From contig JBBIPC010000002.1 in assembly GCA_037443035.1 (NCBI GenBank), forward strand, positions 160,001 to 224,000: a DNA stretch of 64,000 bases, in the 5' to 3' direction. The stretch comes from Chthonomonadales bacterium. GTDB taxonomy: Bacteria; Armatimonadota; Chthonomonadetes; Chthonomonadales; CAJBBX01. Shown here piece after piece: positions 573-26,058 of this stretch. Positions within the stretch are counted from its first letter, which is position 1. Every line of letters starts with the position of its first letter. The notes under the pieces are model-generated. The model made no database searches and was not told the DNA's origin. It saw nothing but the letters and a program-made list of their open reading frames with translations. The position numbers and the translations under genes were made by a program.

Positions 573-3500
573 ATGGCCCTATCGGAACAGAAGCTTCGGG
601 AGCTCGCCGAAATCGAGCCGCCACGCTTTCTGGAGCGGATCGCGGATTTCCTCGCCGACTTGACGCTGCGCACTTCCGGCACGGCAGTGCTCGAGCGAGC
701 TCAGGAGGGTGCAGGCCGCCCCATCGGCAGCGTTGGCTTGAACGCCGAGTCCTTCGGCATGTTGCTTTCCCACCGGGCAGCATTCCATGGCGTAGCCGAT
801 CCTGTACAAGGCTTGTACCGCCTGATGAAACCCTACCAGGTCGGCCCTTACGAGCTCCGACAGTTCACCATGTGGCTGGTGAAGTTTCATGACAAGCTCT
901 CTGAAACCGAGGTGCTCCGAGAGCCTCCCGTGGTGGCGGCGGCACCTCAAGCAGAGCCAGCACGCCCCGGCGTCTCACGCGAAGCCGTCGCTCCTGCCCC
1001 ATCACCGCCATCTGCGTACCGCTTGCCCGCCGTTGCCGTGGCCGGAGCTGTCGTCTCAGAGACGGAGTTGGCGAGAGGAAGCCGGCGGCGCGTTCGCATA
1101 GTTCGAGGCCCTGGACATCCCTATGAGGAAGTCGTAGAGGAGGTTCCCGCCGGATCCAGACGAGCGATTCAGAGACCTGCTGGTGGAGGAGGGGCGGAAA
1201 GTACGGCCTCAGCCGAAGCAAGGCCAGCGGCGTCACAGCCGACTCGAGAGCCGGATGTCATCAGCCGAGCATGGCAGGCTGGTCACAGGAGTGGGCCGCC
1301 CGCGGGCATACCGCCAGAAGTCGAAGTGGCGCCTTCCACTGCAAAGCGCGTTGCCATGAGGACATTGTGGCTGTCCAATCTCAGCATGGCCAGCGCTGCG
1401 GCCGGCGTCATGATCGGACGGTCTGTGGCTCCGGCCACCATGGCCGCCCGACTCACGTCGCCAGCGACACTCGGGGTGGCCGGTCCGGCGGCCACCGGCA
1501 GCATGCTTCAACCACCGTACATGTCGTTCCCGCTCAGTCATCCGCCGGTGAGTACGGCCTCGTGGCTCGGTGTTGCCCCGCCGGCCCCCTATCCAGCCGA
1601 GTTCGTGCCCATGCCGGGTGCTCCCGCTCCGCTTCGGAGTCTTGTCGTGCCCCAGCCAGCGTTCGAGCGCCCGTCCATAGTGGCCATGCCCAGCTTCGGT
1701 GTCCAGATGCCGGTCCTGCCGGGTCGTGAGGCACTGAGCATCTACGAGACAGCCCACCAGGCATATACAGGTACGGCGGACGTCCACCCGCGTGGTAGGC
1801 CACGAGGCACAAGGGGCGCGCTCGAAGACGCTCTCCAACCCACCGCAGAGGCATCCATCCACCCTAGTCCTGCCCCGCAGCGCGGACCATCACCGATACC
1901 CGGACTGCTGGCTGCGGGGCTGGCGGGATTCCTACTTGGACGACTGACGTCTCGCGGTGGCGGCCAACCTGTACTAGGTCCCCCGGTATACGATCTGTTC
2001 GCCGAGCCTGTGCCATCACGCACCGGAGTCCCTCGGCTCCGCATCTTCTCAGTTTCGCTACCAGGATCGCTCGAAGCGACGCTCGTCGCACCAGGCGCAG
2101 GTCCCACAGCCGTTGGCGGGACACCTGGCGGTGCCTTCCTCCAGGTCGGGATACCGTTGCTCGGTGCCGGTCCCTCGCTAGGACGCAGATTGGGTACCGC
2201 GCCTGGAATGACTGTGCCTTCTCCCATGGACATTCTTGGTGGCACAGTTGCTGCCCGAGGAGGGCCAGCCGCATCCGCGCCGATTCGGGTGCCGAGCCAG
2301 GTCCTGCCGCGACTTGGAGAAGTCACCCTTATCGCTCCCCCCATGGCGGTAGCATCGGAAGCTGCCGAGCGCCGAGGAAGTGCCGTGGCGTTCGATTGGA
2401 AGGCCCTCGCTCGTGCATCCGGTCCGCTGGACCAGACGGGACTTCGCCGACTGCGCGAAGCTCTGCCGGAGGGGACTCAGGCGATCTACCCAGCTATCCC
2501 TCGCCAGGACCTGCCTGCGGGAGCCGTGAACCTTCGCTTGGCACCTTCGCTGCTACGACCGTTGTTGACCCAAGCGTACGGCTCGCATGCAGCCGGCATC
2601 GCGGGAGCCGCGGCTTCGACCGCCTCCGCCATCGATGTCACACCCCTGTCTGCAGCGCCTACTCCGGCGCGTATCGTACCGGTCAGGCGACCGGCAGGGG
2701 CAGCGGAATCGGTGCTTCCGAGCCCCACACCATCCGTGGCCGGAGCGCTGCAGGAGGCCGGTGCCGGCCAGGCCAGGCGGTCGCCCATGCTCGACTTCCT
2801 GGGGGTGCCAGTCCGTCTCGCCCCCAGCCTTGCGGGACGCGCAGAGCTTCGAGATGAGCTGGCGGCTCGTGGCCTAGCCACACAGGGCGCAACCCCTCAG
2901 GTCGTGCGACCTCACCTGTTCCAGGCACTGCGGGAGCAGGTATTCCCGGGAGTGCAAGCCATTCACGCGGAACCCGACCGCTCGGCTTGGCGCAAGGCTG
3001 CGCCGCACTTCGGCCTCAGAGACTCTGAGCCGACAACGGTTCTTTCGCCTGACGCCCGCATCAAGCCTCCGAGGGCCGACGCGCCGTTGCCCCAACTCCA
3101 TACTGGCGCGCCGTCGCCGGTCCTTCGTCCGTGGCTCGCTCAGACTGTCGCCGAACGGAGTGCCGGGGCCGTACCCATGTCCTTGGCTGCCGCACCGAGG
3201 CTCGCCGAGGCGTTTGGTATGCCTTCTCACAGACCTCTGCATACAACCGGCCGGGTCTCGGAGCCACATCTCGGGATGGATGAGCGCTTCGAGCCGTTCG
3301 CCTCTCCGATGACGGTGCCAATCGGCATACGGGGCATGCCGGGTATGCCGGCTGAGCGGCCTGTACGCTCGCTATGGCCCGCGCCAGAGCCTGACCCTCG
3401 GTCCCCACAGGACCGGAGCCCAGTCCATCTGCCACCCGTGGAAGCACACGGCCGCGTGAGGATCCCAGAAAGCGCTCCCGCTGAGCACGGCGCTCCACCG

Positions 3501-4505
3501 GCACCGTTGTTCTCCGTGAGTGGAGTGCGGCTGGCCGACCGGTCGCCATTGTCGCCTGACCAACTCCCCTCGCTACCTGGCTTACCGGCGCGACCTGCCA
3601 TGCCTGCGTCAGAGCTGGCCAGTCGCCCGTTGTTACCGAGCCTGCGAACAGAATGGCACCAAGGTATCGAACTACCTGGGGCAAGACCAGAGATCCGGCC
3701 GGCGTTCAGGAGTAGTCTGCCCATGGCGATCAGTCTGCCGGGGATCACCCAAGCCCGACATCCTGCGCTCGCATCCGACTCGCTTCCGTCAGCCGGAACG
3801 CTTGACACAGCCACACGCGTGGCCGCAGGACCAATGGAGCAGAGGGTGGCGCGCCCGCTGGTTTCACCGGCACCGTTCGGCGTTCCGATGCTCGCACCGA
3901 TCCCACTGCCGATCTTCGCCAGCACGGCGCAGCGACCGGCGCTCGGCCCAATGCGAAGCGCACCAATGCACCAGACGCTGCCGCAGCCGGACAGGCGGCC
4001 CGCAGAAGGACCTGCGGCCTTACAGCTCGCCGTGCACACGGTTCTGGGCGGTCCACAGCCTTCTGCCACGCCTCTCATGCCAACGAGTCCTGTGCAGCTT
4101 CCCCTGCCGGCTGCGCGTGTGGACATTCCACCCATCGAGCCGCCGCCTATGCCCCTGCCAGGCGCCGGCGAACCGGCATCGCCAGTCGCACTGCGCAGCC
4201 GGGCATCCTCGGTTGTTTCCCACGCACCTCGGCGGTACTACGCCTCGGTGGATGCAGGTCCCGCACGACGGGTAACGGTTCAGAAAGCCACATCGGAAAC
4301 AGCAGGCATCGTTGGCGGGCCTCACCAACCGCTGCCAAGTCCGCATCGCGCCCGACAGATGCCTACCGACACGCAGCGTGCTTCCATCCTGTCCTCGCGT
4401 GAAGAGGGCATGACCGCAAACGAAGTGTTTCTCCTCGCCAATGACGTTTGGGCGATTCTCAAACGACGACTACAGTGGGAGGCGGACCGGCGTGGCCGGT
4501 GGTAA
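573..4505 (+). CDS. 1310-aa Pro/Ala-rich CIS-associated protein with a short helical C-terminal motif; candidate lumen cargo, plug or tape-measure-like protein
   Basis: Long ORF with upstream GAGGAGG, lying between the tube and LysM genes. Mostly low complexity; ends LANDVWAILKRRLQWEADRRGRW. Confidence 0.75.
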   Translation: MALSEQKLRELAEIEPPRFLERIADFLADLTLRTSGTAVLERAQEGAGRPIGSVGLNAESFGMLLSHRAAFHGVADPVQGLYRLMKPYQVGPYELRQFTMWLVKFHDKLSETEVLREPPVVAAAPQAEPARPGVSREAVAPAPSPPSAYRLPAVAVAGAVVSETELARGSRRRVRIVRGPGHPYEEVVEEVPAGSRRAIQRPAGGGGAESTASAEARPAASQPTREPDVISRAWQAGHRSGPPAGIPPEVEVAPSTAKRVAMRTLWLSNLSMASAAAGVMIGRSVAPATMAARLTSPATLGVAGPAATGSMLQPPYMSFPLSHPPVSTASWLGVAPPAPYPAEFVPMPGAPAPLRSLVVPQPAFERPSIVAMPSFGVQMPVLPGREALSIYETAHQAYTGTADVHPRGRPRGTRGALEDALQPTAEASIHPSPAPQRGPSPIPGLLAAGLAGFLLGRLTSRGGGQPVLGPPVYDLFAEPVPSRTGVPRLRIFSVSLPGSLEATLVAPGAGPTAVGGTPGGAFLQVGIPLLGAGPSLGRRLGTAPGMTVPSPMDILGGTVAARGGPAASAPIRVPSQVLPRLGEVTLIAPPMAVASEAAERRGSAVAFDWKALARASGPLDQTGLRRLREALPEGTQAIYPAIPRQDLPAGAVNLRLAPSLLRPLLTQAYGSHAAGIAGAAASTASAIDVTPLSAAPTPARIVPVRRPAGAAESVLPSPTPSVAGALQEAGAGQARRSPMLDFLGVPVRLAPSLAGRAELRDELAARGLATQGATPQVVRPHLFQALREQVFPGVQAIHAEPDRSAWRKAAPHFGLRDSEPTTVLSPDARIKPPRADAPLPQLHTGAPSPVLRPWLAQTVAERSAGAVPMSLAAAPRLAEAFGMPSHRPLHTTGRVSEPHLGMDERFEPFASPMTVPIGIRGMPGMPAERPVRSLWPAPEPDPRSPQDRSPVHLPPVEAHGRVRIPESAPAEHGAPPAPLFSVSGVRLADRSPLSPDQLPSLPGLPARPAMPASELASRPLLPSLRTEWHQGIELPGARPEIRPAFRSSLPMAISLPGITQARHPALASDSLPSAGTLDTATRVAAGPMEQRVARPLVSPAPFGVPMLAPIPLPIFASTAQRPALGPMRSAPMHQTLPQPDRRPAEGPAALQLAVHTVLGGPQPSATPLMPTSPVQLPLPAARVDIPPIEPPPMPLPGAGEPASPVALRSRASSVVSHAPRRYYASVDAGPARRVTVQKATSETAGIVGGPHQPLPSPHRARQMPTDTQRASILSSREEGMTANEVFLLANDVWAILKRRLQWEADRRGRW

Positions 4506-4550: not shown

Positions 4551-5201
4551 ATGGGACTGACCAAAGCCAAGATCATCAACGAAGACACCCGCGAGGTCAT
4601 CGAGTGTCTGTTCAATCCCACCGAGTACACCATCGCCAAAGCCAACTCGTGGCAGCCGAAGCCGGTCGTCGGCAAGAACGTTCCGAAGCTGGACTTCACC
4701 GGCGGCGGTTCTCGCACGCTGGATCTCGAGCTATTCCTCGATGTCTTCGAGCAGAAGGGCGCCGATGTCCGCACCTACACGGACAAGCTTTGGAAGCTGA
4801 CCATGATCGACGAGTCCAAGAAGCACCCGAAAACACGTCGTTCACGGCCACCTCTGTGCACATTCCAATGGGGCGGGAACTGGAGCTTCAAGGCGGCGAT
4901 CACCAATCTCTCCATCCGCTACACGCTGTTCAGGGACGATGGTAAGCCGGTCAGGGCAGTGGCACATGTCACCATGCAGGAGGCGGAGGACGATACAGAA
5001 CAGCGGCGCACCAACCCCACCTCGGGCTCCGAACCCGGACGGAAGCGGCGCGAGGTCCGACCACACGATACCCTCGCACTGATCGCTTTCGAGGAATACG
5101 GAGACGCTGGGCAGTGGCGCCGTATCGCTCAGGCCAACAATCTGGCGGACCCCATGGACCTCCGCCCGGGTCAGATACTGACCATACCGCCCCTTACGTG
5201 A
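4551..5201 (+). CDS. CIS tube initiator with C-terminal LysM-like domain (Afp7-like)
   Basis: IECLFNPTEYTI and RPPLCTFQWG motifs; C-terminal DTLALIAFEEYGDAGQWRRIAQANNLADPMDLRPGQILTIP. Confidence 0.9.
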   Translation: MGLTKAKIINEDTREVIECLFNPTEYTIAKANSWQPKPVVGKNVPKLDFTGGGSRTLDLELFLDVFEQKGADVRTYTDKLWKLTMIDESKKHPKTRRSRPPLCTFQWGGNWSFKAAITNLSIRYTLFRDDGKPVRAVAHVTMQEAEDDTEQRRTNPTSGSEPGRKRREVRPHDTLALIAFEEYGDAGQWRRIAQANNLADPMDLRPGQILTIPPLT

Positions 5202-5269: not shown

Positions 5270-7222
5270 ATGGCTGAAGAACACCACGTCTCGCACTTCG
5301 CCATGCACATAGACGGTTCACCCGCCCCCAAAGAAGTCATGGACCAGCTTCTCGACTGCACCATCGAGAATAGCCTCCACCTTCCGGATATGTGCACGGT
5401 ACGGATCCACCATGGTGAGGCAGACAAGCAGGGCATGTACAAGTTCATCGATTCGCCTCAGTTCGCTGTTGGCAAGGCGATGAAGATTACGGGTGGTGAA
5501 GGTCCGAGCGGCGATTCGACCCTGTTCGAAGGGGAGATCGTCGGCGTCGAGCTAGACCTGGCCGCACACGGCGTGCCCACTCTGGTGGTGCGATGTTTCG
5601 ACAAGAGCCACCGCTTGCATAGGGGAAGGCAGGCCCGCACGTTCGTTCAGATGAAGGACACGGACATTGTGCAGCGCGTCGCAGGCGAGGCTGGCCTGAG
5701 CGTCGAGGCCGATCAGACCAGCGAAGTCCATGACTGGGTCATGCAGAACAACCAGACCAACTGGGAGTTCCTGCAAGAACGTGCGGCCCGGAACGGCTTC
5801 CGGCTCTTCCTGAAAGACGGCAGCAAGCTGTGCTTCAAGAAGGTCGAGGATGATGGTCGGACAACCCATACCCTCGAGTGGGGCAAGGAGCTACGCAGCT
5901 TCCGGCCCAGGGTATCGGCGTCTCCCCAGGTGGACGAGGTGGAGGTGCGTGGTTGGGATCCCAAGAAGAAACAGGCGATTATCGCAAGAGCCAAGTCCGC
6001 CAAGGGCGTGCCGAAGGTACGGCAGGATCGTCAAGGTGGAGAGGTCGCCAAGCGCGCGTTTGGCAGCGCCAAGATGGTCGTCGTCGATCGTCCCGTCCAT
6101 AGCGAAGGCGAAGCTAAGGCCATCGCCCAGTCGTTGTGTGACGAGATTGGGGCCTCCTTCCTGGAAGCCGAGGGTCTCTGCTACGGCGTGCCGCAGATGC
6201 GGCCGGAGGACATGGTCAAGATCCAGAACATCGGTGATCGTTTCAGCGGTGAGTACCTGGTCACGTCCTGTACCCACACCTACACACCGGCCGAAGGTTA
6301 CGCCACCGTCTTCACTGTGAGCGGCAAGAAACCTCCGACCCTCCTTTCCGTTCTGGAAGGGGATGAGCTGTCTCGTCGTGCGCCCATCGGTGGCAACATC
6401 GTGGTTGGCGTGGTTACGGACAACAACGACCCCGATAACTTGGCGCGGGTCAAAGTGAAGTTCCCCTGGCTCACCGAGGAGCACGAGAGCTTCTGGTCTC
6501 GTATTGCCGTACCTATGTCCGGCCCAGATAGAGGAATGCTGTTCTTGCCCGAAGTCGGCGACGAGGTCCTCGTGGCTTTCGAGCATGGCGACATCCGACG
6601 CTCCTACATCATAGGCTGCCTCTGGAACGGCAAGGACAAGCCACCAAAGACGCGCAAGGACGACTACGCTAGCTCGAAAGCCGTCAATGGCGGCAAGACC
6701 ACTCGCCGGTGGATACGGACGCGCATGGGGCACATCCTGGAGTTCTTCGATGATTGCGATGGCAAGATTGGTGCCACGCTCCGAACCAACGAAGGCTACC
6801 GGATTCAGCTCCGCGAGAACGACCAGCGCATCGAGATCATCACGAAGAACAAGCACATGATGCTACTCGATGACAAGAACGATGTGATTCGGGTCGTGGA
6901 CAAGACCGACGGCAATCACATCAAGATCAGCACGAGCGACAACTCGATTCTCGTCGAAGCGAAAGGCGACATCACCGTCCGCTCCAAGCAGGGCAACATT
7001 ACCCTCGATGCTATGCAGAAAGTCGTCATTACCGCGAAGCAGGGCATCGAGGCGACTACGCCGCAGCAAGTCAAGATCGAGGGTACTGCCGGGTTCAGCA
7101 TCAAGACTGCCGCCAGCGGGTCTGTGGAAGCCACCAATCTCGATCTCAAGGGCAATGCAAAGGCCAACCTCCAGGGCGGCGCCATGGCGACGATACAGGC
7201 CGCACTGGTCAAGATCAACTAG
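5270..7222 (+). CDS. vgrG: VgrG-like spike protein (Afp8; gp27-gp5 fusion)
   Basis: Late-control-D-like N-half (QNNQTNWEFLQERA, VEVRGWDP), gp5 OB fold (GVVTDNNDP..ARVKVKFPW..LPEVGDEVLVAFEHGD) and a beta-helical C-terminus. Confidence 0.93.
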   Translation: MAEEHHVSHFAMHIDGSPAPKEVMDQLLDCTIENSLHLPDMCTVRIHHGEADKQGMYKFIDSPQFAVGKAMKITGGEGPSGDSTLFEGEIVGVELDLAAHGVPTLVVRCFDKSHRLHRGRQARTFVQMKDTDIVQRVAGEAGLSVEADQTSEVHDWVMQNNQTNWEFLQERAARNGFRLFLKDGSKLCFKKVEDDGRTTHTLEWGKELRSFRPRVSASPQVDEVEVRGWDPKKKQAIIARAKSAKGVPKVRQDRQGGEVAKRAFGSAKMVVVDRPVHSEGEAKAIAQSLCDEIGASFLEAEGLCYGVPQMRPEDMVKIQNIGDRFSGEYLVTSCTHTYTPAEGYATVFTVSGKKPPTLLSVLEGDELSRRAPIGGNIVVGVVTDNNDPDNLARVKVKFPWLTEEHESFWSRIAVPMSGPDRGMLFLPEVGDEVLVAFEHGDIRRSYIIGCLWNGKDKPPKTRKDDYASSKAVNGGKTTRRWIRTRMGHILEFFDDCDGKIGATLRTNEGYRIQLRENDQRIEIITKNKHMMLLDDKNDVIRVVDKTDGNHIKISTSDNSILVEAKGDITVRSKQGNITLDAMQKVVITAKQGIEATTPQQVKIEGTAGFSIKTAASGSVEATNLDLKGNAKANLQGGAMATIQAALVKIN

Positions 7223-7231
7223 GAGAAGCAC

Positions 7232-7528
7232 ATGCCACCTGCAGCACGCATGGGAGATCCAACTGCACACGGAGGGGTGATCACGATGGGCTGTCCCACT
7301 GTCCTCATCGGAGGTCAACCGGCGGCCCGTCTGGGCGACATGCACACGTGCCCCATGGTCACACCTGGTACACCGCCGGTCCCCCACGTGGGCGGGCCCA
7401 TCCTTCCGCCGTGCCAGCCTACCGTTCTAATCGGCGGCATGCCAGCCGCCAGGGTCGGTGACATGGCCACGTGTGTCGGTCCCCCCGACTCGATTGTGAT
7501 GGGTTGCGTGACCGTGATCATCGCCTGA
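7232..7528 (+). CDS. PAAR spike-tip protein (Afp10-like)
   Basis: Three PAAR motifs (PAARMGD, PAARLGD, PAARVGD) with His/Cys metal ligands; GGAGA RBS. Confidence 0.95.
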   Translation: MPPAARMGDPTAHGGVITMGCPTVLIGGQPAARLGDMHTCPMVTPGTPPVPHVGGPILPPCQPTVLIGGMPAARVGDMATCVGPPDSIVMGCVTVIIA

Positions 7529-7551
7529 ATCCGCCGGTGAGAGGAGGCCTC

Positions 7552-7959
7552 ATGCCCGACGCAACGAAGGATTTCCTGGGATCAGGTTGGAAGTTTCCGC
7601 CGGTCCTCGATAGCCGTGGCCGCATTGCCCTTGTGCACCAAGAGCAGGACGTCGAAGAAGCCATCCAGATGATCCTCCGAACACGCAAGGGAGAGCGACC
7701 CATGCGACCGCAGTTCGGATCGGACCTGCATCTGCTCGCCTTCATGCCCAACGACGCCAGCACGCAGGGCATGGCCTGCCGGTATGTCCGTGAAGCGCTG
7801 GCATGGTGGGAACCCCGCATCGAGGTGGTCGAAGTCAATGCTCGGGCCGACGAAGCGGATCCGGCACGCATGCTCATTGACATTCGTTACCGGCTCTTAG
7901 CCACGAACTCGGAACGGAATCTTGTGTTTCCGTTCTATGTGATCCCCGGAGAGGAGTAG
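7552..7959 (+). CDS. GPW/gp25 baseplate protein (Afp9-like)
   Basis: Start moved to ATG 7552 behind GAGGAGG. Motifs FLGSGWKFP, ILRTRKGERPMRPQFGS, WEPRI and NLVFPFY. Confidence 0.93.
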   Translation: MPDATKDFLGSGWKFPPVLDSRGRIALVHQEQDVEEAIQMILRTRKGERPMRPQFGSDLHLLAFMPNDASTQGMACRYVREALAWWEPRIEVVEVNARADEADPARMLIDIRYRLLATNSERNLVFPFYVIPGEE

Positions 7960-7968
7960 CACGCCGCC

Positions 7969-10101
7969 ATGTCCCTCCCAAGCCCCAACCTGGACGACCG
8001 AAGCTTCCAGAGCATCGTAGATGACGTCAAGCGTCAGATCGGTCTGCGATGCCCCGAGTGGACCGACCACAACGTCTCGGATCCCGGCGTCACGCTCATC
8101 GAGCTGTTCGCCTGGATGATGGAGATGACGCTGTACCGCCTCAATCAGGTTCCGGAGAAGAACTACCTGAAGTTCCTGGAGATGCTCGGCGTCTCGCTGG
8201 AGCCGCCGCAGCCGGCGCGCACTGACCTGCGATTCCGGCTTTCACGTCCCATCGAGGACACTGACGGAGAGGAGGCGTACGAAGTCACCCTCAAGCCCCG
8301 CTCCACTATCGCGGGCACCGTTCGAACAGAGACCGAGGAGTCCATCGAGTTCGCGACTGACAGTGAACTGAAGATGGTTCGGCCCCGTATGCGCTACGTC
8401 ATCATGGCACCGAAGCGCGACCTGGCTGAAGGTGAGGACGAGCTGACGCGCGACATCCAGGAGTTTCAGCCCGGCCACGGGGCGTTCCAGATTTTCAGTC
8501 CCGTACCGCGGACAGGTGACGCTCTCTACATCGGCTTCGAGAACGACGTCTCGGGGAACCTCATACAGCTAGACGTGGAATGCGTAACCGCCGCGGCTAC
8601 TGGTCTGAACGAAGACTACCCGGCTCAGGTATGGGAGTGGTGGAACGGAACAACGAACAGATGGGAGCGCCTGGAGACGCCCTTCGACGACACCTTTGGC
8701 TGGAACCGGCCTGGTTACATCGAGCTGGACATGCCGCAGAATCTGGTGCCCAGGGTCCTGGGAGGCCGGCGTGCCTACTGGGTGCGTTGCCGATATACGA
8801 TCGATCCGGAAGACGTTCCACCGAAGGGTCCACAGAACCGCGGTCCAGATGAGTACCAGAAGCCGCCTGAGATCACTTCGCTGTTCGCACGCACGGTGGG
8901 CGGCACAGCCCCCGCGAGTCAGTGCACGACGGTATTCGAAGAAGTGCTTGGTCAGAGCGATGGCACTCCCGGCCAGGTTTTCCGCCTCAAGAACGCTCCG
9001 ATCATGCCACGTCGTCCTGGAGAGACGGTTCTCGTCGGCCGCGAGGGTGCGCCGCCCGAGGAAATGCAGAAGTGGACGGAGGTCGTGGACTTCTCCGAAT
9101 CCGGACCGGACGACCTTCACTTCACTTGCGACTCCCTGACCGGGGAGGTAGCCTTCGGACCAGCGATTCCACAACCCGATGGTTCCGCTCGTCGCTATGG
9201 CGCGATACCCGAGAAGGGCATGACGATCGTGTTTTCGGCGTACCGCTTTGGAGGTGGCACACAGGGCAACGTTCGAGAGAACCAGGTCCGCGTCCTCAAG
9301 TCCTCCATACCTTATATCGCGGAGGTGACCAACCCACGCAAGGCCCATGGAGGACAGGACCTGGAGGATATCGAGAGGGCCAAGATGCGGGGCCGCGCTG
9401 TGCTCAAGATGCGCGACCGAGCCGTAACGGCCGAGGATTTCGAGTTTCTTGCCAAACGAGCATCGTCCGGCGTCGGTCGGGCGCGATGCATTCAGCCCGC
9501 CCCTCGGCATCTGTGGACCGATGAAAGCGATGTACCGCCCGGAGTCGTCAAGGTGCTCATCGTTCCGGCGCTGTCCGAGGCCGTCACCGTCCCACGTCCC
9601 GCCGATCTCCGTGTGCCAGAACGCACAAGACGCGATGTCGAGCGCTATCTGGACGAGCGACGGCTTCTCACGACGGTACTCGAAGTCGGCGAGCCGGAGT
9701 ACCTATATGTCTCGACAGACATCGTTCTGGTGGCCGACCCTCATGCCGACGCAGAGGAAGTAGTCCGTCGCGTACGGGAGAAGCTGACGGCGTACCTCCA
9801 TCCGCTCACCGGCGGACCAACGGGCGATGGATGGCCCTTCCGCCGAAGCTTCACCATCTCCGATCTCTATGCACAAGTGGGAGCAGTGGACGGCGTAGCG
9901 TTCCTTCTTGACGCCAAGATATATGTCTCGCAGGTTGCGAACCAGGAAGAGGGCATCCTCGGTCCAGAGCAGCTCGTGCCCAATACGGAAGGCGTACGAG
10001 TGGCAGGTCACCAACTGCTCACCACACGAGAGCACAGGGTACGAGCCCGATCTATCTACCAGGTGGGCGCCGAGGACAGCCCCCTACTCGATGAAGCATA
10101 G
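7969..10101 (+). CDS. Baseplate J-like assembly protein (Afp11-like)
   Basis: LPSPNLDDRSF, PEWTDHNVSDPGVTLIELFAW, LGQSDGTPGQ, RDRAVTAEDFE and YLHPLTGG motifs. Confidence 0.93.
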   Translation: MSLPSPNLDDRSFQSIVDDVKRQIGLRCPEWTDHNVSDPGVTLIELFAWMMEMTLYRLNQVPEKNYLKFLEMLGVSLEPPQPARTDLRFRLSRPIEDTDGEEAYEVTLKPRSTIAGTVRTETEESIEFATDSELKMVRPRMRYVIMAPKRDLAEGEDELTRDIQEFQPGHGAFQIFSPVPRTGDALYIGFENDVSGNLIQLDVECVTAAATGLNEDYPAQVWEWWNGTTNRWERLETPFDDTFGWNRPGYIELDMPQNLVPRVLGGRRAYWVRCRYTIDPEDVPPKGPQNRGPDEYQKPPEITSLFARTVGGTAPASQCTTVFEEVLGQSDGTPGQVFRLKNAPIMPRRPGETVLVGREGAPPEEMQKWTEVVDFSESGPDDLHFTCDSLTGEVAFGPAIPQPDGSARRYGAIPEKGMTIVFSAYRFGGGTQGNVRENQVRVLKSSIPYIAEVTNPRKAHGGQDLEDIERAKMRGRAVLKMRDRAVTAEDFEFLAKRASSGVGRARCIQPAPRHLWTDESDVPPGVVKVLIVPALSEAVTVPRPADLRVPERTRRDVERYLDERRLLTTVLEVGEPEYLYVSTDIVLVADPHADAEEVVRRVREKLTAYLHPLTGGPTGDGWPFRRSFTISDLYAQVGAVDGVAFLLDAKIYVSQVANQEEGILGPEQLVPNTEGVRVAGHQLLTTREHRVRARSIYQVGAEDSPLLDEA

Positions 10102-10113
10102 GGAAGCGGCTAC

Positions 10114-11265
10114 ATGACAACCACACTGGACGGACGAAGGACGCCGCCGGGCAGCCAGGAAGACATCGGCCAGCCCATACAGAACATCGAGGTATCGGTT
10201 ACACCGGACGCCGTTCGGGTCGAACTCCTCCCCAGGCACGCCGGTTCACCACTGGAACGCCTGCGACCACTGTGGCATGAAGTGGTGAGGCTACCGCGCA
10301 TGGTGCTGAGCGTCACGTCTTCTGACGAACGCCCACGCCTCCTCAGGCTCTCGACCCGTTCGACGGATTCAGCCTGGCGATCATGGTGGACTCGCTGGAC
10401 GTTCGCAGTTCGGACGGTACCGGAGATCCATGGAGGCGACGCCGTCGCGGCTCAGGACATCACACTCGAGGACGATACGATCCTTCAGATACTCGTTCTT
10501 CCTGGAGAGACGCGGGAGGTCGCACTGGAATTCCGTCCTGTCCTGGACGGCACGACTCACCCCGGCGACTATGTCTTCGATATAGTCTACACGGACGTGA
10601 ACGACCGCTCCGAGGGGGCCGTCTCCGCCATGCTTGTGCTCCGGCATCCCGACAGCGTCCTCGAGCGACAGCTACCAGCCATCTACGCCGAGGAGATGGA
10701 CAGACTTCAGGAGGCATCAGGAGAACCCTACGAACCACCGTTCTTCCGGCGGTACCTCCGTGGGTTCGATGATGCGCTGGAGCCCATGAAGGAGACGCTG
10801 GACAACCTGCATCGGTTTTTCGGTGCCTACGAGACGCCGCCGGACTTCCTCCCCTGGCTGGCAACGTGGGTGGACCTCGTTCTGGATCAGAACTGGCCGG
10901 AGATGAAGCGCCGTCGCCTCATACGCGAGGCGGTCGAGCTCTATCGCTGGCGCGGTACCCGGCGTGGGCTCATGCGCTATCTCGAGATCTATGCCGGCGT
11001 GAAACCGGAGATCAACGACCGTCCCTTCCGGGGCATGCGCCTCGGCCCAGACACGGTGCTAGGCACAGGTCTCGAGGATCCAGAAAAGGCCCACCAGAAC
11101 ACCGTGCTTGGTGATGTTCCCGACCATACGTTCGTCGTGACTATCGCAGTACCGGACCCTTCGGCCATTAGTGAGCAAACGGTTCGGGACATCATTGACG
11201 CTCAGAAACCTGCCCACACCGCCTATGTCGTGCGGATTGTACGACGTACATCATCGGAGGAATAG
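10114..11265 (+). CDS. Tail-protein-I-like baseplate wedge protein (Afp12/Cis12-like) with an extra N-terminal Ig-like module
   Basis: C-half has LPAIY, FLPWLATWV and RRLIREAVELYRWRGTRRGL..IIDAQKPAHT. The N-terminal ~175 aa is beta-rich (PGETREVALEF..PGDYVFDIV). Confidence 0.88.
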   Translation: MTTTLDGRRTPPGSQEDIGQPIQNIEVSVTPDAVRVELLPRHAGSPLERLRPLWHEVVRLPRMVLSVTSSDERPRLLRLSTRSTDSAWRSWWTRWTFAVRTVPEIHGGDAVAAQDITLEDDTILQILVLPGETREVALEFRPVLDGTTHPGDYVFDIVYTDVNDRSEGAVSAMLVLRHPDSVLERQLPAIYAEEMDRLQEASGEPYEPPFFRRYLRGFDDALEPMKETLDNLHRFFGAYETPPDFLPWLATWVDLVLDQNWPEMKRRRLIREAVELYRWRGTRRGLMRYLEIYAGVKPEINDRPFRGMRLGPDTVLGTGLEDPEKAHQNTVLGDVPDHTFVVTIAVPDPSAISEQTVRDIIDAQKPAHTAYVVRIVRRTSSEE

Positions 11266-11274
11266 GAGAGTTCC

Positions 11275-12444
11275 ATGCCACTCGAGGACATGATAGCCCA
11301 CCCCATTACCGGCATCCGCCCCTTCAACGAACTCCGTATAGATGCCGAGATCTGGCGCGAAGCCCACGAGCAGCACACGCTCCATCGTCGCCTTCACAAC
11401 GTGTCGGCTCACCGGCCCGGCATCGTCTATGGATTGGAGGTCGTGGTCTCCCAGACGAAGGAGCGGACAATCGTGGTGGCGCCCGGAGTCGCCATAGACG
11501 ATGATGGCAATGTCGTCGTCCTTGGTGAGCCACCAGTGGCGTTCACGCTCGAGGAGAAAGGGCAGACCTATATCACCCTATCGTTCCTCCGCGCTACGGA
11601 CCGGCGATCGGCAGTGACAGTCGGATCCGGTCAGCAGCATTATCGCATCGTCGAAGGTCGCGACGTGCGGGCCACCAAGGAACTCCCGACAGGCCCGTAC
11701 ATCGAACTGGCGCGGATCTGGCGTACTGGCGCTGACAAGCCCGTCAAGGAGGCGGCGAACCCATTCGATCCTGGCAACGACGAGCTCAACCTCCTGAACC
11801 GGCCTATCGCCTTCCCTCATTGTTATGCTGAAGGAGCCGTGGGCGAGCTTTCGTATGTGCCGGTTTCCAATCCCGCCGCATGGAAGCCAAATAGATCCGG
11901 ACTGTGGCATCTGGTCCGGGAAGGCAACGGTCGGGGGTTTCATCTGTCGTTCACCGGTCCCATGAATCTGCGCCAGCCATCCGGGCGCGATCCCATCCTG
12001 CTCTATGTCGCAGGTTCCGAAGCTTTTCAGCCGCTCGCCGATGCCGAAGTCCAAGGCCTTCGCGAATACCTGGGTCGCGGTGGAATGCTGTTTGCCGAGG
12101 CCAGTGGCGGCTCCGAGGCGTTCGCTAAGAGCTTCGAGGAATTGGCGGGCAAGTTGGGCGCGAAGTTGGCGAAGGTCTCGAAGGGGCACCCCTTGCTGAC
12201 CGCTCATCACGTTTTCTCTGGACCACCTCCTGGCGCACAAGAGAAGGGCGTACTTACCGCGGACGTAGAAGCAGGCGTCATCTTGAGCACGTACGATTAT
12301 GGTGGTGCGTGGCAGGGCGATCTCGCCAAGCCCGATGCGGCAGATGCTCGCGACCGAATCCGCCAGGCTCAGGAGTTCGGCCTGAACGTCATCGCCTTCG
12401 CTGCACACCGACTCAGAACACGCGAACTGCGCAAGCTCGGTTAG
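11275..12444 (+). CDS. CIS accessory protein: tail-fibre-attachment-like N-terminus fused to a DUF4159-like domain
   Basis: N-terminal GIVYGLEV..VAPGVAIDDDG motif; C-terminal PILLYVAG..GLREYLGRGGMLFAEA..HPLL pattern typical of DUF4159. Confidence 0.75.
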   Translation: MPLEDMIAHPITGIRPFNELRIDAEIWREAHEQHTLHRRLHNVSAHRPGIVYGLEVVVSQTKERTIVVAPGVAIDDDGNVVVLGEPPVAFTLEEKGQTYITLSFLRATDRRSAVTVGSGQQHYRIVEGRDVRATKELPTGPYIELARIWRTGADKPVKEAANPFDPGNDELNLLNRPIAFPHCYAEGAVGELSYVPVSNPAAWKPNRSGLWHLVREGNGRGFHLSFTGPMNLRQPSGRDPILLYVAGSEAFQPLADAEVQGLREYLGRGGMLFAEASGGSEAFAKSFEELAGKLGAKLAKVSKGHPLLTAHHVFSGPPPGAQEKGVLTADVEAGVILSTYDYGGAWQGDLAKPDAADARDRIRQAQEFGLNVIAFAAHRLRTRELRKLG

Positions 12445-12565
12445 GCAGTAGCCGCCGAGCGTACAGCCGCGAGCATTCATCGTCGCCTGACATAGCGGCG
12501 CAGTCTCCTTGACTGGCGTAGGACGTGAGCACGTCAGGAGCTCGCGTCACACGCCTCATGCGACG

Positions 12566-12594
12566 TTGCCGCTGGAGAGTGCGTCTGCTATAAT
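12566..12594 (+). promoter_or_regulatory. sigma70-type promoter for the two membrane-protein genes
   Basis: TTGCCG (12566-12571), 17-nt spacer, TATAAT (12589-12594) with extended -10 TG. Confidence 0.7.
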
Positions 12595-12667
12595 GGCTGG
12601 GTATGATGCCGTGGCCGCGCGGAGAGCTTTGTAGGCGCGCACCATCCTTGGAAGATCGGAGACGCAA

Positions 12668-15091
12668 GTGGCAGCATCCGAGCAAACGAGGCAGTACCTG
12701 AACCCTCCTCCCCGCAGCGTGCTAGAGGTCGAGGCTGGTTCGGCAGTAGCACTCGCACTCGACTTCAGCAACGAGGCTCCCAACCCGCAGGGTTTCTACC
12801 TCGAAATAGACGGCCTCCCGGCTGCCGACTGGTCTACCGGTGTCGGTCCAACCAGCATGGTAGTAACGGCAGCGTTGGGAGCGGGTACGCTCAAGGCAAC
12901 GTTGCAGCCACCCGTTCGCGCTGCTGCGGCTGAGTATGCTCTGACAGTGAGGATCATCGCCGACGGCTCGGTGCTCGATCCGCCAGGAGACATAGCTCTG
13001 ACCCTCCGTGTGCTACCCGGGCCGGAACCGCCTGAGGAGGAGGTGTCTCCGGAGGCTGCCAGGATCCTGGAGGAAGTAGCCGCTGAGGAGGCGGCCACCC
13101 AAGCCACGTTAGAGACCGCCTTCGAGACATCATCCAGCGCGCCCGCTGTGGAAGTTCCCGCAGTCGAGCCGGCGGTATCCACTCCGGTTCCACCTCCTGC
13201 GCCGGAGCCTGCTCGGCCCACGGAACCGGTCGAGACGCCAACCGTCGCTGAGCCGCCGGCCGTGTCTCCACAGCCAGACATTGGGCCGCAGGTACAGCCA
13301 GCACCGCAGACTCCGGCGGCTACTTCGCCGGCCCCTGAGACACCTGCAAGTCCGCCACGGCCGACACAGCGCTCAGCCTCCGCGGCGCAGCCCCGACCGG
13401 CCGCACCACCCCGCCCTGCCAAGCCACCGGCTGCACCCAAGCCGACAGCTCCGTCGCCTCCTCCGCGGAAGCCCGACGAAGACATGCCCGTCATTGACCT
13501 CGGGGCCACGAGGCCGCACGTCGAAGAAGAGGAGGAAGAGGAACCGGCAATTGCAGAGAGGAGCGTGGTCGATCCCAAGGAGGGTACGGTCATCTCTCTG
13601 AAACCCGGTGAGACCACGCTGGTGCGCTTCAGTTTTCGCAACGAGCAGCGATCGACGCGGACATATGTCATAGACGAGGATCGGTCGCTGGAGCCAGGAT
13701 GGCTCGTTCTCGTGCAAGACCAAGTCAACATCAACGCCAACGGCACGGGTGAAGTCAGTGTGCGCCTCGCCCCACCCATCACAGCGCAGCCCGGGAGCTA
13801 TCCTTTCGTGGTGCGCGTCGGTCCGCTCGGCGCAACGCTGACACCGTGCAGCCTCGTGCTGGAAGTCCAGCCGACGCCTGCAGTGAAGTTGACAACCAAA
13901 CAAGATCTGGTGAAAGTCGGTCCCTTCGGACGGGCAGTGGACTTCGGCCTCATCGTCGAGAGCGCCGGCAACGCCGATACCTCCTTCCGGATCTCGGTGA
14001 AAGACCAGACTGTAGAGACCGATGAGCAGGGCCGCCCGAAGGGACCAGATGATCTGTACGAGACTCCTCTATGGCGGTACCTGTTCGACAAGGAGTTCGA
14101 AACACTCGAGTCCAAGGCCATAGGACGTCCGCCGAACCCCATACCTCTCCGCCTGCGAATGCTGCGCAAGGGCATCTGGTGGTTCGGTTTCAAGGAACAG
14201 CACCAGGCTCGTGTCAAGGCTGTGCCTGTTACCGACCCCACCAACGGAGGCAAGACAGAAAACTCGGTTCTACTGACGGCGATCCGCTGGCGCCTGTTGC
14301 CCATACCCGGCTTCCTGGCATGGCCACTCGCAATCGTCCTGTTCTTGCTCTTGGCTTCCGGCGCGAGCAACATGCGGGTGACCAATGCCTACAGTGTGGG
14401 CAGCTCCTATTATGTCCTGCAGATGCGAGACGATAACTGGACGGAGGGCAAGCCGCCCGTGAACATGACTGCCAAACTCCGGTGGAGCGCCCCGTGGTAC
14501 GCGCTGCTCAGGCTGAAGGCGTCAGAAGAAAACCGGACGGAGACTCACTACTTCGTACACGGGGGCTACGACGATACGATACAGGTCGAGGAATACGGCG
14601 ACAAGCGACGCCGCTCCTATGAAGTCGGTTCTCTGCTCCGTCCTGGCGGTGACCCGATACAGGTTCGGTTCGTCCCCCTGCGAACGGATATGAAATTGCT
14701 GCTCACGATCGGCCCTTCGGCAGCCCCCGTGGACGAATACGAGCGGGATGAATCCATCGGTGAGGACAAGACACCCCTCAAGACGCGAGAGGTCATCATT
14801 GACGTGCCCAGGGATGGCAGCACGCGTATCAACTTCAGCAACCTGACGGACCGAAATCGCGGTTTGAAGATACTGGTTCACCCCGTCACCGTACCCTCCC
14901 AGTTCAGAGTGGAGAACTTCACACTCAACGATTCGTCGCAGATCAACCCGGGAGAAACCCTCACGGCTAAGGTGACCTTTACGGGTACCGCGCCTCCAGA
15001 CGGCTCGAATGTGGAAGAGGATTGGCAGTTCGTCACGACAGACGCCACGCACCAGGTTCTCCATGTGCGCCTCCGGCTGAAGGTGGACTAG
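12668..15091 (+). CDS. Single-pass membrane protein with repeated Ig-like (COG1470/NEW3-like) modules, a Pro-rich linker and a C-terminal Ig-like domain
   Basis: 807-aa ORF with no signal peptide. Pro/Glu-rich linker, one hydrophobic helix (GFLAWPLAIVLFLLLASGA), modules ending AAAEYALTVR and QPGSYPFVVR. Confidence 0.75.
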   Translation: MAASEQTRQYLNPPPRSVLEVEAGSAVALALDFSNEAPNPQGFYLEIDGLPAADWSTGVGPTSMVVTAALGAGTLKATLQPPVRAAAAEYALTVRIIADGSVLDPPGDIALTLRVLPGPEPPEEEVSPEAARILEEVAAEEAATQATLETAFETSSSAPAVEVPAVEPAVSTPVPPPAPEPARPTEPVETPTVAEPPAVSPQPDIGPQVQPAPQTPAATSPAPETPASPPRPTQRSASAAQPRPAAPPRPAKPPAAPKPTAPSPPPRKPDEDMPVIDLGATRPHVEEEEEEEPAIAERSVVDPKEGTVISLKPGETTLVRFSFRNEQRSTRTYVIDEDRSLEPGWLVLVQDQVNINANGTGEVSVRLAPPITAQPGSYPFVVRVGPLGATLTPCSLVLEVQPTPAVKLTTKQDLVKVGPFGRAVDFGLIVESAGNADTSFRISVKDQTVETDEQGRPKGPDDLYETPLWRYLFDKEFETLESKAIGRPPNPIPLRLRMLRKGIWWFGFKEQHQARVKAVPVTDPTNGGKTENSVLLTAIRWRLLPIPGFLAWPLAIVLFLLLASGASNMRVTNAYSVGSSYYVLQMRDDNWTEGKPPVNMTAKLRWSAPWYALLRLKASEENRTETHYFVHGGYDDTIQVEEYGDKRRRSYEVGSLLRPGGDPIQVRFVPLRTDMKLLLTIGPSAAPVDEYERDESIGEDKTPLKTREVIIDVPRDGSTRINFSNLTDRNRGLKILVHPVTVPSQFRVENFTLNDSSQINPGETLTAKVTFTGTAPPDGSNVEEDWQFVTTDATHQVLHVRLRLKVD

Positions 15092-15094
15092 ACC

Positions 15095-17365
15095 ATGAAG
15101 CTCTTGCAGACCGAGATCAACATCGTCCCAGGCGTAGCAGCCCAACGCCAACCGCTGCCGGAGGGCATGGTAGGACAGGGTGCCACCGTTGTCCGCCTCA
15201 CCAATAACACCAGCCAGGAAAACGCCTACACCATTCGCCTGGGCTGCGACAATCCTTACTGGCAAGAGTCTTGGTACACGCTCGTCCCGTTGCCACCGTC
15301 CGGAGCGCCGGAGAACGCACCTCCGGCAGGGAAGCCGGACCAGGTCTCCCATAACGGGCGCGTGGCTACGCTGTTCATCACGCGAGGCGGCGAGCGGGAT
15401 GTCATGGTCGTCTTCAAGGTGCCCAAGGAGTACGATGCCCGCGCAGGTCTCTACGATCTCACTATTCAGGTCGAGACTCGCGTCACGGGACAGTCCGCGG
15501 GTCTCCGGCGCAAGGACAGATTCACCGAGTTACATGCCACCGCCATCATTCGGCCGTTCGAGCCGTTCGATCAGTGGCGAATGGAGCTTCAGCCGGAGAC
15601 CCGCAAGGTGGGATTCTTCCGCCGTTCTACCGAGTTCGAAGCGGTTCTTACTAACGAATGCAATGACTGGCTATACTGCGAGCTACGCGCTCCGCGGCCC
15701 AAGGATGTCCTCATCGAGACTCCGTCGCAGTATATCGCAGTCCCGCCCCCGGAGCCTGGGCAGGAACGCACAGTGCGAACAGTGCCATTTCGTGCAGCAA
15801 GCCGGATCCGCCCGTTCCGCGGGGAACGCGTGCCATTGTCAATTCCCCTGACAGCGGTCCGCATCGCAGCGCCCACCGTAGCTCCGCTGCCCGAAGAAGC
15901 GCTCTATACCCCAGGCAGCGCGAACTGCCATGCTGCCGTCGTTGCCACCGAGACACAAGAAACACGTGTGCCGCCAGTGGAGCAGGCGCTGACGTACTGC
16001 CCACTCTTCCCTGCGACTCTCAGCGGATGTCTTGGTGCAATCGCCCAGAATGCCAAAGGGCTGATCATGACACTCATCGGCCTGATCGTGGCCGCGAACC
16101 TGGCTGTATTCATGTTCGAGCAGATGTTCCGCCACAACATTATCGCCGAACCCTATCGCACGCAGGTGGCACCTGGCGGGGTACTGACGATCGGCGGACG
16201 CTGGGTAAAGGGATCCCGCGTATACATCAATGACGAGACGCAACCCGCCGAGCAGGTTGAACCGCCCGAAGAGAAGGGTCTGCGGAACTTCTTCGCTAAC
16301 GCCCTCAAGGCCGTGCAGCCGTCCCAGTTGCAGCTGATTGCCATCAAGGTACCGGAGACGTACGACGGTAAGAAGATCCGCATTACGGTGCAGCGCGCCG
16401 GAGCGTTGCCGTTCCTCGGCCCTCTTCTACCGAAGTACAAGTGCGGCTCTATGGTGCAAGTCGGTAATCCGCCACGGCCTCCAGCGCCTGCCAAGAAGGC
16501 CTTCGCGTTTGTCGCGCCGACGGTGGCCCCTGGGCAGCAGTTCGCCATCTCCGGCAGCTCACTGGGTACTTCCGGGCAGGTCTTGATGGGATCGGAACCT
16601 GCACGCGTGGTGCGGTGGACACCAACTCGCATCGTGGCGTCACCGCCGGCCAACTTACCGGTCAATGATGCAATACCAGTGAATGTCATACCGAAGGATC
16701 ATGACCCGATCCCGGCCGGCACCATCAAGATCGTCCAGCCAGGTGCGAGCGCCGCCGAGACGCCCTCAGGCACCGCGACGCCACCGACACAAGGAGCTTC
16801 GGGCGCGACCACTCCAACGCTTCCGCCGGTGAATAGGCCCGGACCGGGTACCGTCAGGCCGCCGGTGCGGCCTCCCAGCGTCCCCAGAGGAACTGCAGCG
16901 GCAGCAGCAGCCTACACAGCCCTGCTTCGTGGCGACCCTGGCCAGACGTCGGCGAACGTCAACCGCGCACTCCAGACCAATCCTAACGATCCGCTGGCAC
17001 TCGCGGTAAAGGGCTATGCACTTCTTCGGGATGAGAAACCCGGCGACGCGGCCAGCTCCATCAGCCAGGCTCTGCGTTTGACTGCCGGACAATCCGGACG
17101 CGCGCGATCCGTGGCATTGACGGCATCGGCATGGCTCTCGGAGATGCGCGAAGACCCCACGTCGGCCGAGAGGCAATACAGGGAAGCCCTTAAGGCCGAC
17201 CGTACCTGCACTTTGGCTGCCTATAGCTACGCGTACTACCTCCTCGACAACAACCGACGAGCGGAGGCCATGGAAGTTGTGCGGACTGCGTTGCGCAACA
17301 ACGGTTCAGAGGCCCGGTCGTCCTCCCGTTTCATGGATCTGGCAGGCCAACTCGGCATCCACTAG
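15095..17365 (+). CDS. Single-pass membrane protein: N-terminal Ig-like module, TM helix, IPT/TIG-like domains and C-terminal TPRs
   Basis: Starts 3 nt after the previous stop. TM GLIMTLIGLIVAANLAVFMF; VAPGQQFAISGSSLG..RWTPTRIVA (IPT-like); TPR-like ALQTNPNDPLALAVKGYALL. Confidence 0.75.
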   Translation: MKLLQTEINIVPGVAAQRQPLPEGMVGQGATVVRLTNNTSQENAYTIRLGCDNPYWQESWYTLVPLPPSGAPENAPPAGKPDQVSHNGRVATLFITRGGERDVMVVFKVPKEYDARAGLYDLTIQVETRVTGQSAGLRRKDRFTELHATAIIRPFEPFDQWRMELQPETRKVGFFRRSTEFEAVLTNECNDWLYCELRAPRPKDVLIETPSQYIAVPPPEPGQERTVRTVPFRAASRIRPFRGERVPLSIPLTAVRIAAPTVAPLPEEALYTPGSANCHAAVVATETQETRVPPVEQALTYCPLFPATLSGCLGAIAQNAKGLIMTLIGLIVAANLAVFMFEQMFRHNIIAEPYRTQVAPGGVLTIGGRWVKGSRVYINDETQPAEQVEPPEEKGLRNFFANALKAVQPSQLQLIAIKVPETYDGKKIRITVQRAGALPFLGPLLPKYKCGSMVQVGNPPRPPAPAKKAFAFVAPTVAPGQQFAISGSSLGTSGQVLMGSEPARVVRWTPTRIVASPPANLPVNDAIPVNVIPKDHDPIPAGTIKIVQPGASAAETPSGTATPPTQGASGATTPTLPPVNRPGPGTVRPPVRPPSVPRGTAAAAAAYTALLRGDPGQTSANVNRALQTNPNDPLALAVKGYALLRDEKPGDAASSISQALRLTAGQSGRARSVALTASAWLSEMREDPTSAERQYREALKADRTCTLAAYSYAYYLLDNNRRAEAMEVVRTALRNNGSEARSSSRFMDLAGQLGIH

Positions 17366-18247: not shown

Positions 18248-18421
18248 CCTGAGCCTCCTCCTATGGCGGACACCCCGCCTCTTCCGCGTTTGCGGACAAT
18301 GATCTGAACAACAACCACTCGCCCCGCGCTGCTGCAACGAGGCACACTCGTCTAGACGTTACCACTCCCTTGCTCTGTTCCCAATCTACAGCCGACTACC
18401 TTGCGTCGGCCTTCTGGCGGA

Positions 18422-20038: not shown

Positions 20039-20090
20039 ACGAGCTGCCTACACCTCCTGATACTGCACTAGTCTGAGGCTGGCAATGCTC

Positions 20091-24497: not shown

Positions 24498-24531
24498 GCA
24501 TCATCGCCGGCGGCTTGCCGGCGATGATGCG
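24497..24531. repeat. Perfect 15-bp inverted repeat
   Basis: CGCATCATCGCCGGC-GGCTT-GCCGGCGATGATGCG. Confidence 0.85.
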
Positions 24532-24583
24532 CTACCGATCTACAGTTCTATACGGCTCGATGCTAGTGCAGAGCGCCTGCTTC

Positions 24584-25990: not shown

Positions 25991-26058
25991 TGCTGACTCT
26001 CCTCTCATCGTCGTTCGGAAGCGGCGGCGAGCCGCCAGGGCCCGCCGCCAGCTTGGTA

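Follow-up and report, generated by a model that had tools for sequence, protein, structure and literature searches.

In the contractile injection systems (CIS) whose structures have been solved, the gene preceding cis7 encodes a plug that is needed for assembly, three copies of its C-terminal helix coming together in the spike cavity that faces the tube (PMC8894135, PMC12546770, PMC8894136, PMC13266070, PMC12210884). Deletion of Alg6 or Pvc6 abolishes assembly (PMC8894135, PMC12546770), and a flexible loop of Anabaena Cis6 enters the tube lumen (PMC8894136). For lineage II systems, afp6 is reported absent except in subtype IIb and afp14 generally absent, with unexplained subtype genes found instead (PMC6899500); particles of the S. 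coelicolor system, CIS-Sc, are uniformly 268 nm long with no tape-measure gene (PMC12237407), and H. borinquense is reported to lack cis6 and cis14 (PMC11566945). No mention of plug, tape measure or lumen was found in a paper on Roseiflexus (PMC12998442). Here we describe P0001, a 1310-residue, Pro/Ala-rich protein encoded in a 64,000-nucleotide stretch of the genome of a Chthonomonadales bacterium (assembly GCA_037443035.1, contig JBBIPC010000002.1; G000:C2:160001-224000 in our numbering; hereafter the window), where its gene follows a second tube gene and lies directly upstream of cis7. P0001 is a real and conserved component of a lineage II injection system, undescribed in the literature searched: no paper combining "contractile injection" and "Armatimonad", and no published description of the family of helix-capped proteins to which it belongs, was found there, subscription journals being mostly outside its coverage. 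We put at about one half (0.5) the probability that P0001 acts in assembly from inside the particle, its helix plugging the cavity of the spike and its chain lying in the tube.

Conservation of P0001 among Armatimonadota

The frame encoding P0001 is uninterrupted from 573 to 4505 on the forward strand, and its product ends in ...LANDVWAILKRRLQWEADRRGRW. Ala accounts for 15.3% of residues, Pro for 14.5% and Ser for 7.6%; Cys is absent. Pro, Ala and Ser together make up 20-24% of residues 1-100, 26% of residues 1251-1300 and 28-50% of each 50-residue window in between, the bias being weaker at both ends only, and roughly 900 residues amount to Pro/Ala-rich chain. This bears out the long Pro/Ala/Ser-rich tracts that an earlier note on this DNA, made from the sequence alone, had described. 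A search with residues 1-160 returned 14 proteins, 10 of them full length (1007-1476 residues), and alignment of these 10 revealed conserved blocks at residues 1-115, about 222-285, 579-845 and 1283-1310. The first and last coincide with an ordered N-terminal segment of some 115 residues and a basic amphipathic C-terminal helix, both of which the note had anticipated. The regions of P0001 are as follows:

573..4505, + strand: P0001, the 1310-residue Pro/Ala-rich protein in the Cis6 slot
573..917, + strand: N-terminal domain with five predicted helices, residues 1-115, conserved in Armatimonadota homologues
1236..1427, + strand: small conserved island, residues 222-285, with motifs PDxxSRAW and LWxxNL
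2307..3107, + strand: central island, residues 579-845, with motifs LPxGxxxxYPA, AVNLxL and LDFLGxPVxLAPSL and both copies of RLAPSL
4419..4502, + strand: predicted C-terminal amphipathic, basic-tipped helix, residues 1283-1310, a candidate plug helix

A genome scan located 10 loci in nine genomes, titled Chthonomonadales/Chthonomonadaceae, Capsulimonadaceae, Fimbriimonadaceae and Armatimonadota, with tube 2 upstream in all nine loci for which upstream DNA was available and cis7 downstream in all seven with downstream DNA. Complete slot proteins in Armatimonadota loci range from 597 to 1476 residues. The placement of P0001 between tube and initiator, read earlier from the sequence, is confirmed here by a T4 gp19-type tube gene upstream and a gene with CIS_tube and LysM domains (Cis7) downstream. 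The systems themselves are patchily distributed, a strict first look matching five of 41 relatives (this genome included) and leaving unmatched a genome of the same genus that is 96% complete. Long open frames can arise by chance at high G+C, and the G+C content at third codon positions is 0.65 in P0001 as against 0.70-0.77 in its neighbours; that P0001 is a spurious or decaying frame is nevertheless exceedingly improbable, as both of its ends and its middle are conserved, intact and syntenic, in three Armatimonadota families, and the N-terminal domain, central island and helix are all present in 31 stored homologues. The frame is real, and its conservation refutes the alternative.

No match to the whole of P0001 was found in Pfam, NCBIfam or PHROGs, and no toxin, enzyme (catalytic) or DUF4157 domain was found in it with these collections; its N-terminal, central and C-terminal pieces, compared with Pfam at E 10, returned only a 16-residue scrap of SAP. 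AlphaFold2 predicts five helices within residues 5-113 of the fragment 1-160 (block pLDDT 64-93; mean 70.6) and, in the central island (mean pLDDT 65.1), a small alpha/beta unit at about 583-686 (block pLDDT 75-86). Fold searches gave generic helical matches for the N-terminal domain (best Z 5.2, root-mean-square deviation 8.4, 103 residues aligned) and none with Foldseek; for the central island the best of 48,161 chains reached Z 2.7 (root-mean-square deviation 9.6, 60 aligned) and BFVD gave none at E 0.001, these searches covering the whole island model, rather than the 583-686 unit folded alone, and proceeding without Foldseek on the PDB. Such blanks do not make either domain a new fold. 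The best ESM Atlas score of the central island, 0.76, is a lead only. Twenty island columns are conserved at 90% or more among 52 sequences, and, T585 and N653 aside, Pro, Gly and hydrophobic residues predominate among the 20 most conserved, which do not form a catalytic set.

The doubled RLAPSL in the central island, to which the note had drawn attention, survives in part. The island is conserved and both copies are present, at residues 655 and 748 (2535-2552 and 2814-2831), but the repetition is at chance level, some repeated 6-mer occurring in 620 of 2000 shuffled versions of P0001. A domain duplication was rejected, because profiles of the two surrounding regions fail to align beyond 9 columns (hhalign probability 1.7%).

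The C-terminal helix and its linkage to injection-system genes

Residues 1283-1310 are predicted to form an amphipathic helix with a hydrophobic stripe (V1285, L1288, V1292/W1293, L1296, L1300) and a basic tip, as is characteristic of the C-terminal core helix of Cis6 plugs; the prediction is drawn from residue pattern and conservation rather than from a separate model. Co-location of the C-terminal motif with CIS loci had been set as a test in the note, and the outcome was favourable. When 201 genomes of the phylum were searched with a profile of the final 45 residues, 13 gave matches, nine of them strong (E 8e-13 or better), and all nine strong matches, among them the three genomes that supplied training rows (this one, G017 and G021), lie directly before cis7 and VgrG. 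The four weak matches (E 0.002-0.006) have no CIS genes within 1.5 kb. Cis7 itself is strongly matched in 11 genomes, two of which the helix profile missed: the slot of G077 holds a divergent helix on a low-complexity open reading frame (ORF) of more than 653 residues, and that of G098 a short gene of 75 residues in a two-sheath locus.

A wider helix profile gathered 107 proteins, none of which carries a precomputed Pfam domain. The helix scored in 113 of 117 stored proteins and lies no more than 8 residues from the C-terminus in 112 of these 113. Among 79 helix-bearing stored proteins of at least 500 residues, some of them fragments, 31 score for both islands at the thresholds used, 30 for the central island only and 18 for neither. 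The ordered islands, which the note took for functional domains, are conserved in homologues, but the helix is the constant part of the family.

Similar helices were said in the note to occur in Actinobacteria and Chloroflexi. The former were found, in loci L070, L071, L077 and L079; for Chloroflexota there are only ESM Atlas leads, a stored 107-residue C-terminal homologue falling in unnamed clusters at 0.94-0.95 for which Chloroflexota is the commonest phylum, given without gene context. A plasmid search with Cis7 yielded 59 records, of which 18 were picked for diversity and examined, and 13 of the 18 loci (in Actinomycetota, Cyanobacteriota, Pseudomonadota, Bacillota and haloarchaea) contain a helix-capped low-complexity ORF. 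It precedes cis7 in Nostoc (524 residues), Pseudanabaena (2531), Kovacikia (2316), Paenibacillus (at least 532), Burkholderia (321), Paraburkholderia (878), Embleya (255), Rhodococcus (85, as annotated), Halogeometricum (2203) and Haloferax (2319), and precedes tube 2 in S. clavuligerus (1381), Streptomyces sp. (1020) and Streptantibioticus (906). Short slot genes are found instead in Aureibacter (DUF5908, 55 residues), Iodobacter (53) and the second S. clavuligerus type (70); the slot is without a gene in Treponema and holds a kinase in Deinococcus. This last, in D. psychrotolerans (L072:4047-8825), is an FHA-domain Ser/Thr kinase encoded before cis7 in a rearranged CIS locus. The Paenibacillus slot (L067:6419-8961) comprises two overlapping low-complexity frames of 352 and 532 residues, possibly one frameshifted gene, and Kovacikia has an additional 68-residue helix gene before tube 2, as does the locus studied here. 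In three records the annotation covers no more than the final 182, 177 and 71 residues of frames of 2203 (Halogeometricum, L069:3371-9982), 2319 (Haloferax, L076:1860-8819) and 1381 residues (S. clavuligerus, L070:4228-8373). The 2203-residue ORF lies directly before cis7 on the H. borinquense plasmid, probably in the very system for which neither cis6 nor cis14 was reported (PMC11566945). A scan of viral contigs with Cis7 confirmed none of nine candidates.

A cross-phylum profile trained on eight of the 13 outgroup helices plus those of Armatimonadota was tested on six held-out loci, and in five the top match was the C-terminus of a low-complexity ORF adjoining tube 2 or cis7 (13-34 bits, as against 3 bits or less for unrelated ORFs). 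Scans of whole plasmids placed the helix-capped ORF first in three of three records, two of them training rows. When built from the eight non-Armatimonadota helices only, the profile ranked the tail of P0001 first and that of a 109-residue neighbour third among 34,896 tails in the genome, at weak E-values of 0.5 and 1.5. A tail assembly chaperone and its DUF6760 partner are visible in 11 outgroup loci, called by annotation or BLAST except in L067 (by eye) and L070 (by position and size only), and all 11 have the helix-capped ORF; of the four loci without the pair (L063, L068, L074, L078) none has it and three have a short slot gene. The loci being related and hand-picked, this co-occurrence is a pattern and not a statistic. 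The helix-capped gene directly follows the pair in L071, L077 and L079, whereas that of P0001 does not.

The locus and the genes upstream of P0001

With 19.6 kb of upstream DNA added to the window (L001), the gene order reads: Pvc16-type cap, sheath, tube 1, tail assembly chaperone, DUF6760, a 2542-residue DUF4157 protein, a 109-residue ORF, tube 2 and P0001, followed by Cis7, VgrG, PAAR, gp25, baseplate J, Tail_P2_I and DUF4159. The chaperone matches phrog_508 (E 9e-8), and the DUF6760 gene is its pair partner. The genes around P0001 are:

L001:11014-18642, just upstream of the window: 2542-residue DUF4157 protein (DUF4157 E 9e-33)
L001:18656-18985: 109-residue ORF with an N-terminal strand-like segment, a linker and a plug-like helix
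1..481, + strand: second tube gene (Cis5/Cis1b-like, T4 gp19 fold by domain matches), starting 20 bases before the window
4551..5201, + strand: Cis7 tube initiator (CIS_tube and LysM)
5270..7222, + strand: VgrG-like spike (Cis8), in one ORF
7232..7528, + strand: PAAR tip
7471..7959, + strand: gp25-like wedge, its true start probably about 27 codons later
7969..10101, + strand: baseplate J (Cis11)
10114..11265, + strand: Tail_P2_I baseplate protein (Cis12-like)
11275..12444, + strand: DUF4159 protein with weak CIS13 similarity

The cap, sheath, two tubes, Cis7, one-ORF VgrG, PAAR, gp25 and single baseplate J, and the lack of classical afp6 and afp14 in the gene content (compared with PMC6899500), mark this as an apparently lineage-II-type, IId-like CIS, the subtype being assigned by gene content and not by a tree. 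CIS-Sc, of subtype IId, likewise has a single-ORF VgrG and a single baseplate J, and the closest solved VgrG is 9GTR (E 4.5e-52), which we take to represent the CIS-Sc baseplate, given that PMC12237407 cites its neighbour, entry 9GTS. Loci of the Streptomyces type differ in having the helix-capped protein before tube 2, where it here comes after, and in lacking the extra short helix gene and the giant DUF4157 gene that precede tube 2 here. Two other Armatimonadota genomes (L058, L060) encode VgrG as separate gp27-like and gp5-like ORFs, while their close relatives have it as one ORF. No Cis15-type AAA ATPase was found among the ORFs scanned in L001 and window positions 1-30162, the rest of the genome lying outside this search. 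Past the baseplate genes, 11275-17365 encodes the DUF4159 protein, an 807-residue protein with a NEW3-like domain that is kept in relatives, and a 756-residue TPR protein with weak N-terminal resemblance to the Tail_P2_I protein, possibly a fibre or attachment module; a convergent block on the - strand (17456-30162) encodes a TPR protein, a LuxR-type regulator, a 1468-residue caspase-domain protein, a PorV-like protein and a 1367-residue Ig-repeat protein.

The 2542-residue protein has a weakly alpha/beta-hydrolase-like N-terminus and a long amphipathic region rich in Arg, Ala, Gly and Leu; its C-terminal end differs between genomes, as in polymorphic effectors, and its size across Armatimonadota loci varies ninefold, from 285 to 2583 residues. 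It directly follows the chaperone pair, which is the classical tape-measure position, and has a Tme-like layout (PMC11126660, PMC13277306). It is likely a Tme-like polymorphic effector or ruler. The helix of the 109-residue ORF is related to that of P0001 (hhalign probability 51%, pairwise E 1.5e-4). The 109-residue module is fused to the C-terminus of the DUF4157 protein in two of eight loci (L056, 285 residues, 12124-12981; L057, 789 residues, 6050-8419) and has moved ahead of the DUF4157 gene in three other genomes (L058-L060), and this ORF is possibly a cargo anchor or the true Cis6. Its similarity to DUF5908 is weak (two of 10 members, E 0.077; hhalign 1.2%). DUF5908 is in turn likely a short Bacteroidota form of Cis6, its equation with Alg6 being drawn from position and layout only, with a blank PDB search.

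Plug, ruler, cargo or accessory

From slot, conservation and helix we infer how P0001 might dock, in what number, and where in the particle it might lie. Its C-terminal helix would do the job of a Cis6 plug, packing through its hydrophobic stripe in the tube-facing cavity of the VgrG hub, either with two further copies of itself or with the related helix that ends the 109-residue neighbour, and once seated would nucleate assembly of baseplate and tube. The Pro/Ala-rich chain would serve as a scaffold inside the growing tube, its two folded islands mediating interactions, and P0001 would leave with the tube on firing. By calculation, a P0001 trimer taken as solid protein would fill only 33-52 nm of lumen, which counts for this proposal. 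Like the Cis6 plugs (Alg6, Anabaena tCIS Cis6, Pvc6, Afp6 and SalCis6), P0001 is encoded before cis7 and ends in an amphipathic helix, which in those proteins is functional; it differs in being some 20 times longer, in bearing an N-terminal helical domain in place of a single strand, and in the lack of a detected sequence match. P0001 is proposed to work like a plug rather than to be a Cis6, a membership that is not established because size and N-terminal layout fail and homology went undetected; the 109-residue neighbour better fits the description of a small protein with N-terminal strand, loop and helix.

Several observations weigh against a plug inside the particle. The Alg6-like layout belongs to the 109-residue neighbour, which may itself be the actual plug. 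The CIS-Sc model comprises nine built proteins with no plug chain among them (PMC12237407), and the lumen density of CIS-Sc depends on Sco4256-4258 (PMC10066040). SCO4249, whose number adjoins that of the second S. coelicolor tube gene and which may bear the helix, is absent from the detected proteins named in the text of bioRxiv 2022.08.10.503483, its tables aside. In favour of the proposal, on the other hand, SCO4249 is represented by one mass-spectrometry peptide in crude CIS preparations, as are Cis7 and Cis12 (PMC12237407, supplement file 2), although in a row identical to that of SCO4247. No sequence link was found between the P0001 helix and solved plugs or DUF5908, and the cross-phylum profile leaves the short slot genes unscored (no ORF above 2.9 bits in L063, L064 and L074); moreover, amphipathic helices match easily by chance, and the eight outgroup training rows were picked by eye from position. 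No plug chain emerged from PDB sequence searches with the helix profiles and the short slot genes. Solved plugs went unmatched even by a DUF5908 member and by the Iodobacter slot protein, so a comparison of this kind lacks power for the P0001 helix.

A broader but doubtful extension of this proposal is that the giant, helix-capped, low-complexity proteins supply lineage II with both of its missing parts, plug and tape measure, in one chain: a disordered, polyproline-like ruler, anchored in the spike through a helix of Cis6 type and served by the conserved chaperone/DUF6760 pair. Such a family could have escaped notice, since conservation is confined to the last helix and annotated genes often comprise no more than the final 70-180 codons. 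Phage tape-measure proteins are paired with gpG/gpGT-type chaperones. P0001 resembles Afp14 and the phage tape measures as a long, length-variable chain, in a cluster with a chaperone pair, with a conserved C-terminus that would sit at the baseplate; unlike them it is Pro-rich and largely non-helical, with no predicted long coiled coil or tape-measure family match, and its gene is not the one after the chaperones. A ruler role for P0001, which we regard as tentative and on balance improbable, is favoured by the link to the chaperone pair, by several loci that contain no second long gene, by the ninefold spread in length of the DUF4157 protein and by a loose scaling of about 0.2-0.3 nm per residue. 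The scaling has two literature points only, neither from Armatimonadota: 2203 residues for a 220-nm contracted sheath (some 500-660 nm extended, under an assumed 2.3- to 3-fold ratio, the upper end from SLP lengths of 100 and 300 nm and the lower from helical rises), and 906-1381 residues in Streptomycetaceae for the 268 nm of CIS-Sc. The sheaths of H. borinquense, called heterogeneous, argue against a ruler, as do the place of P0001 away from the chaperones, its non-helical character and the reliance of the CIS-Sc lumen density on other proteins (PMC10066040). Should the role be real, particles here would be roughly 250-390 nm long.

The note had proposed P0001 as the main effector or length determinant, and the effector claim fared poorly. 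If P0001 were cargo, its helix would be a loading tag hooking the payload to the spike cavity, and its islands would, once fired, exert their effect on the target cell or on the producer. Helices of this kind can evidently ride on cargo, as the two fusions of the 109-residue module to DUF4157 C-termini indicate; the islands are conserved with no fold match, and the characterised effector Tme is itself about 70% disordered (PMC11126660). The tape-measure-related, DUF4157-linked effectors Tme (S. davawensis BN159_7576) and Sle1/Sle2 (S. lividans) share with P0001 large size, partial disorder, association with CIS and ties to spike or tube-initiator proteins. P0001, by contrast, has neither DUF4157 nor a terminal toxin domain, its C-terminus being its most conserved rather than a variable part; its conserved island columns do not suggest an active site, cis7 follows it directly with no immunity-like gene, and its gene holds a constant position within the structural operon, whereas the C-terminus of the DUF4157 neighbour varies. 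We consider a cargo role unlikely, and the 2542-residue protein, the Tme-like gene of this locus, the better candidate for main effector. An arrangement we judge quite unlikely would leave P0001 outside the tube, as a cytoplasmic scaffold or assembly chaperone binding the baseplate transiently, with the 109-residue gene supplying the plug and the DUF4157 protein acting as both ruler and effector. The tape-measure position and amphipathic helix-like sequence of the latter speak for it, as do the two folded islands, which might not pass a lumen of 3.6-4.5 nm, and the CIS-Sc structure, in which no such chain was built. It is harder to reconcile with the lengths of the DUF4157 proteins across Armatimonadota, far more variable than the 597-1476 residues of the slot proteins, and with six outgroup loci (L066, L070, L071, L073, L077, L080) in which the helix-capped ORF is the only long gene seen between the chaperone pair and cis7, DUF4157 genes included.

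The helix-capped family offers a concrete candidate gene and a 28-residue motif for the published gap in plug and tape measure (PMC6899500, PMC12237407, PMC11566945), and its occurrence in cultured, genetically tractable hosts makes the motif testable there. That modules of the 109-residue type occur fused to DUF4157 proteins points to a short tag by which cargo might be anchored. If P0001 and its relatives are only plugs with long tails, the gap in the parts list would still be filled and gene models corrected; if they prove to be disordered rulers, they would represent a new way of setting tail length.

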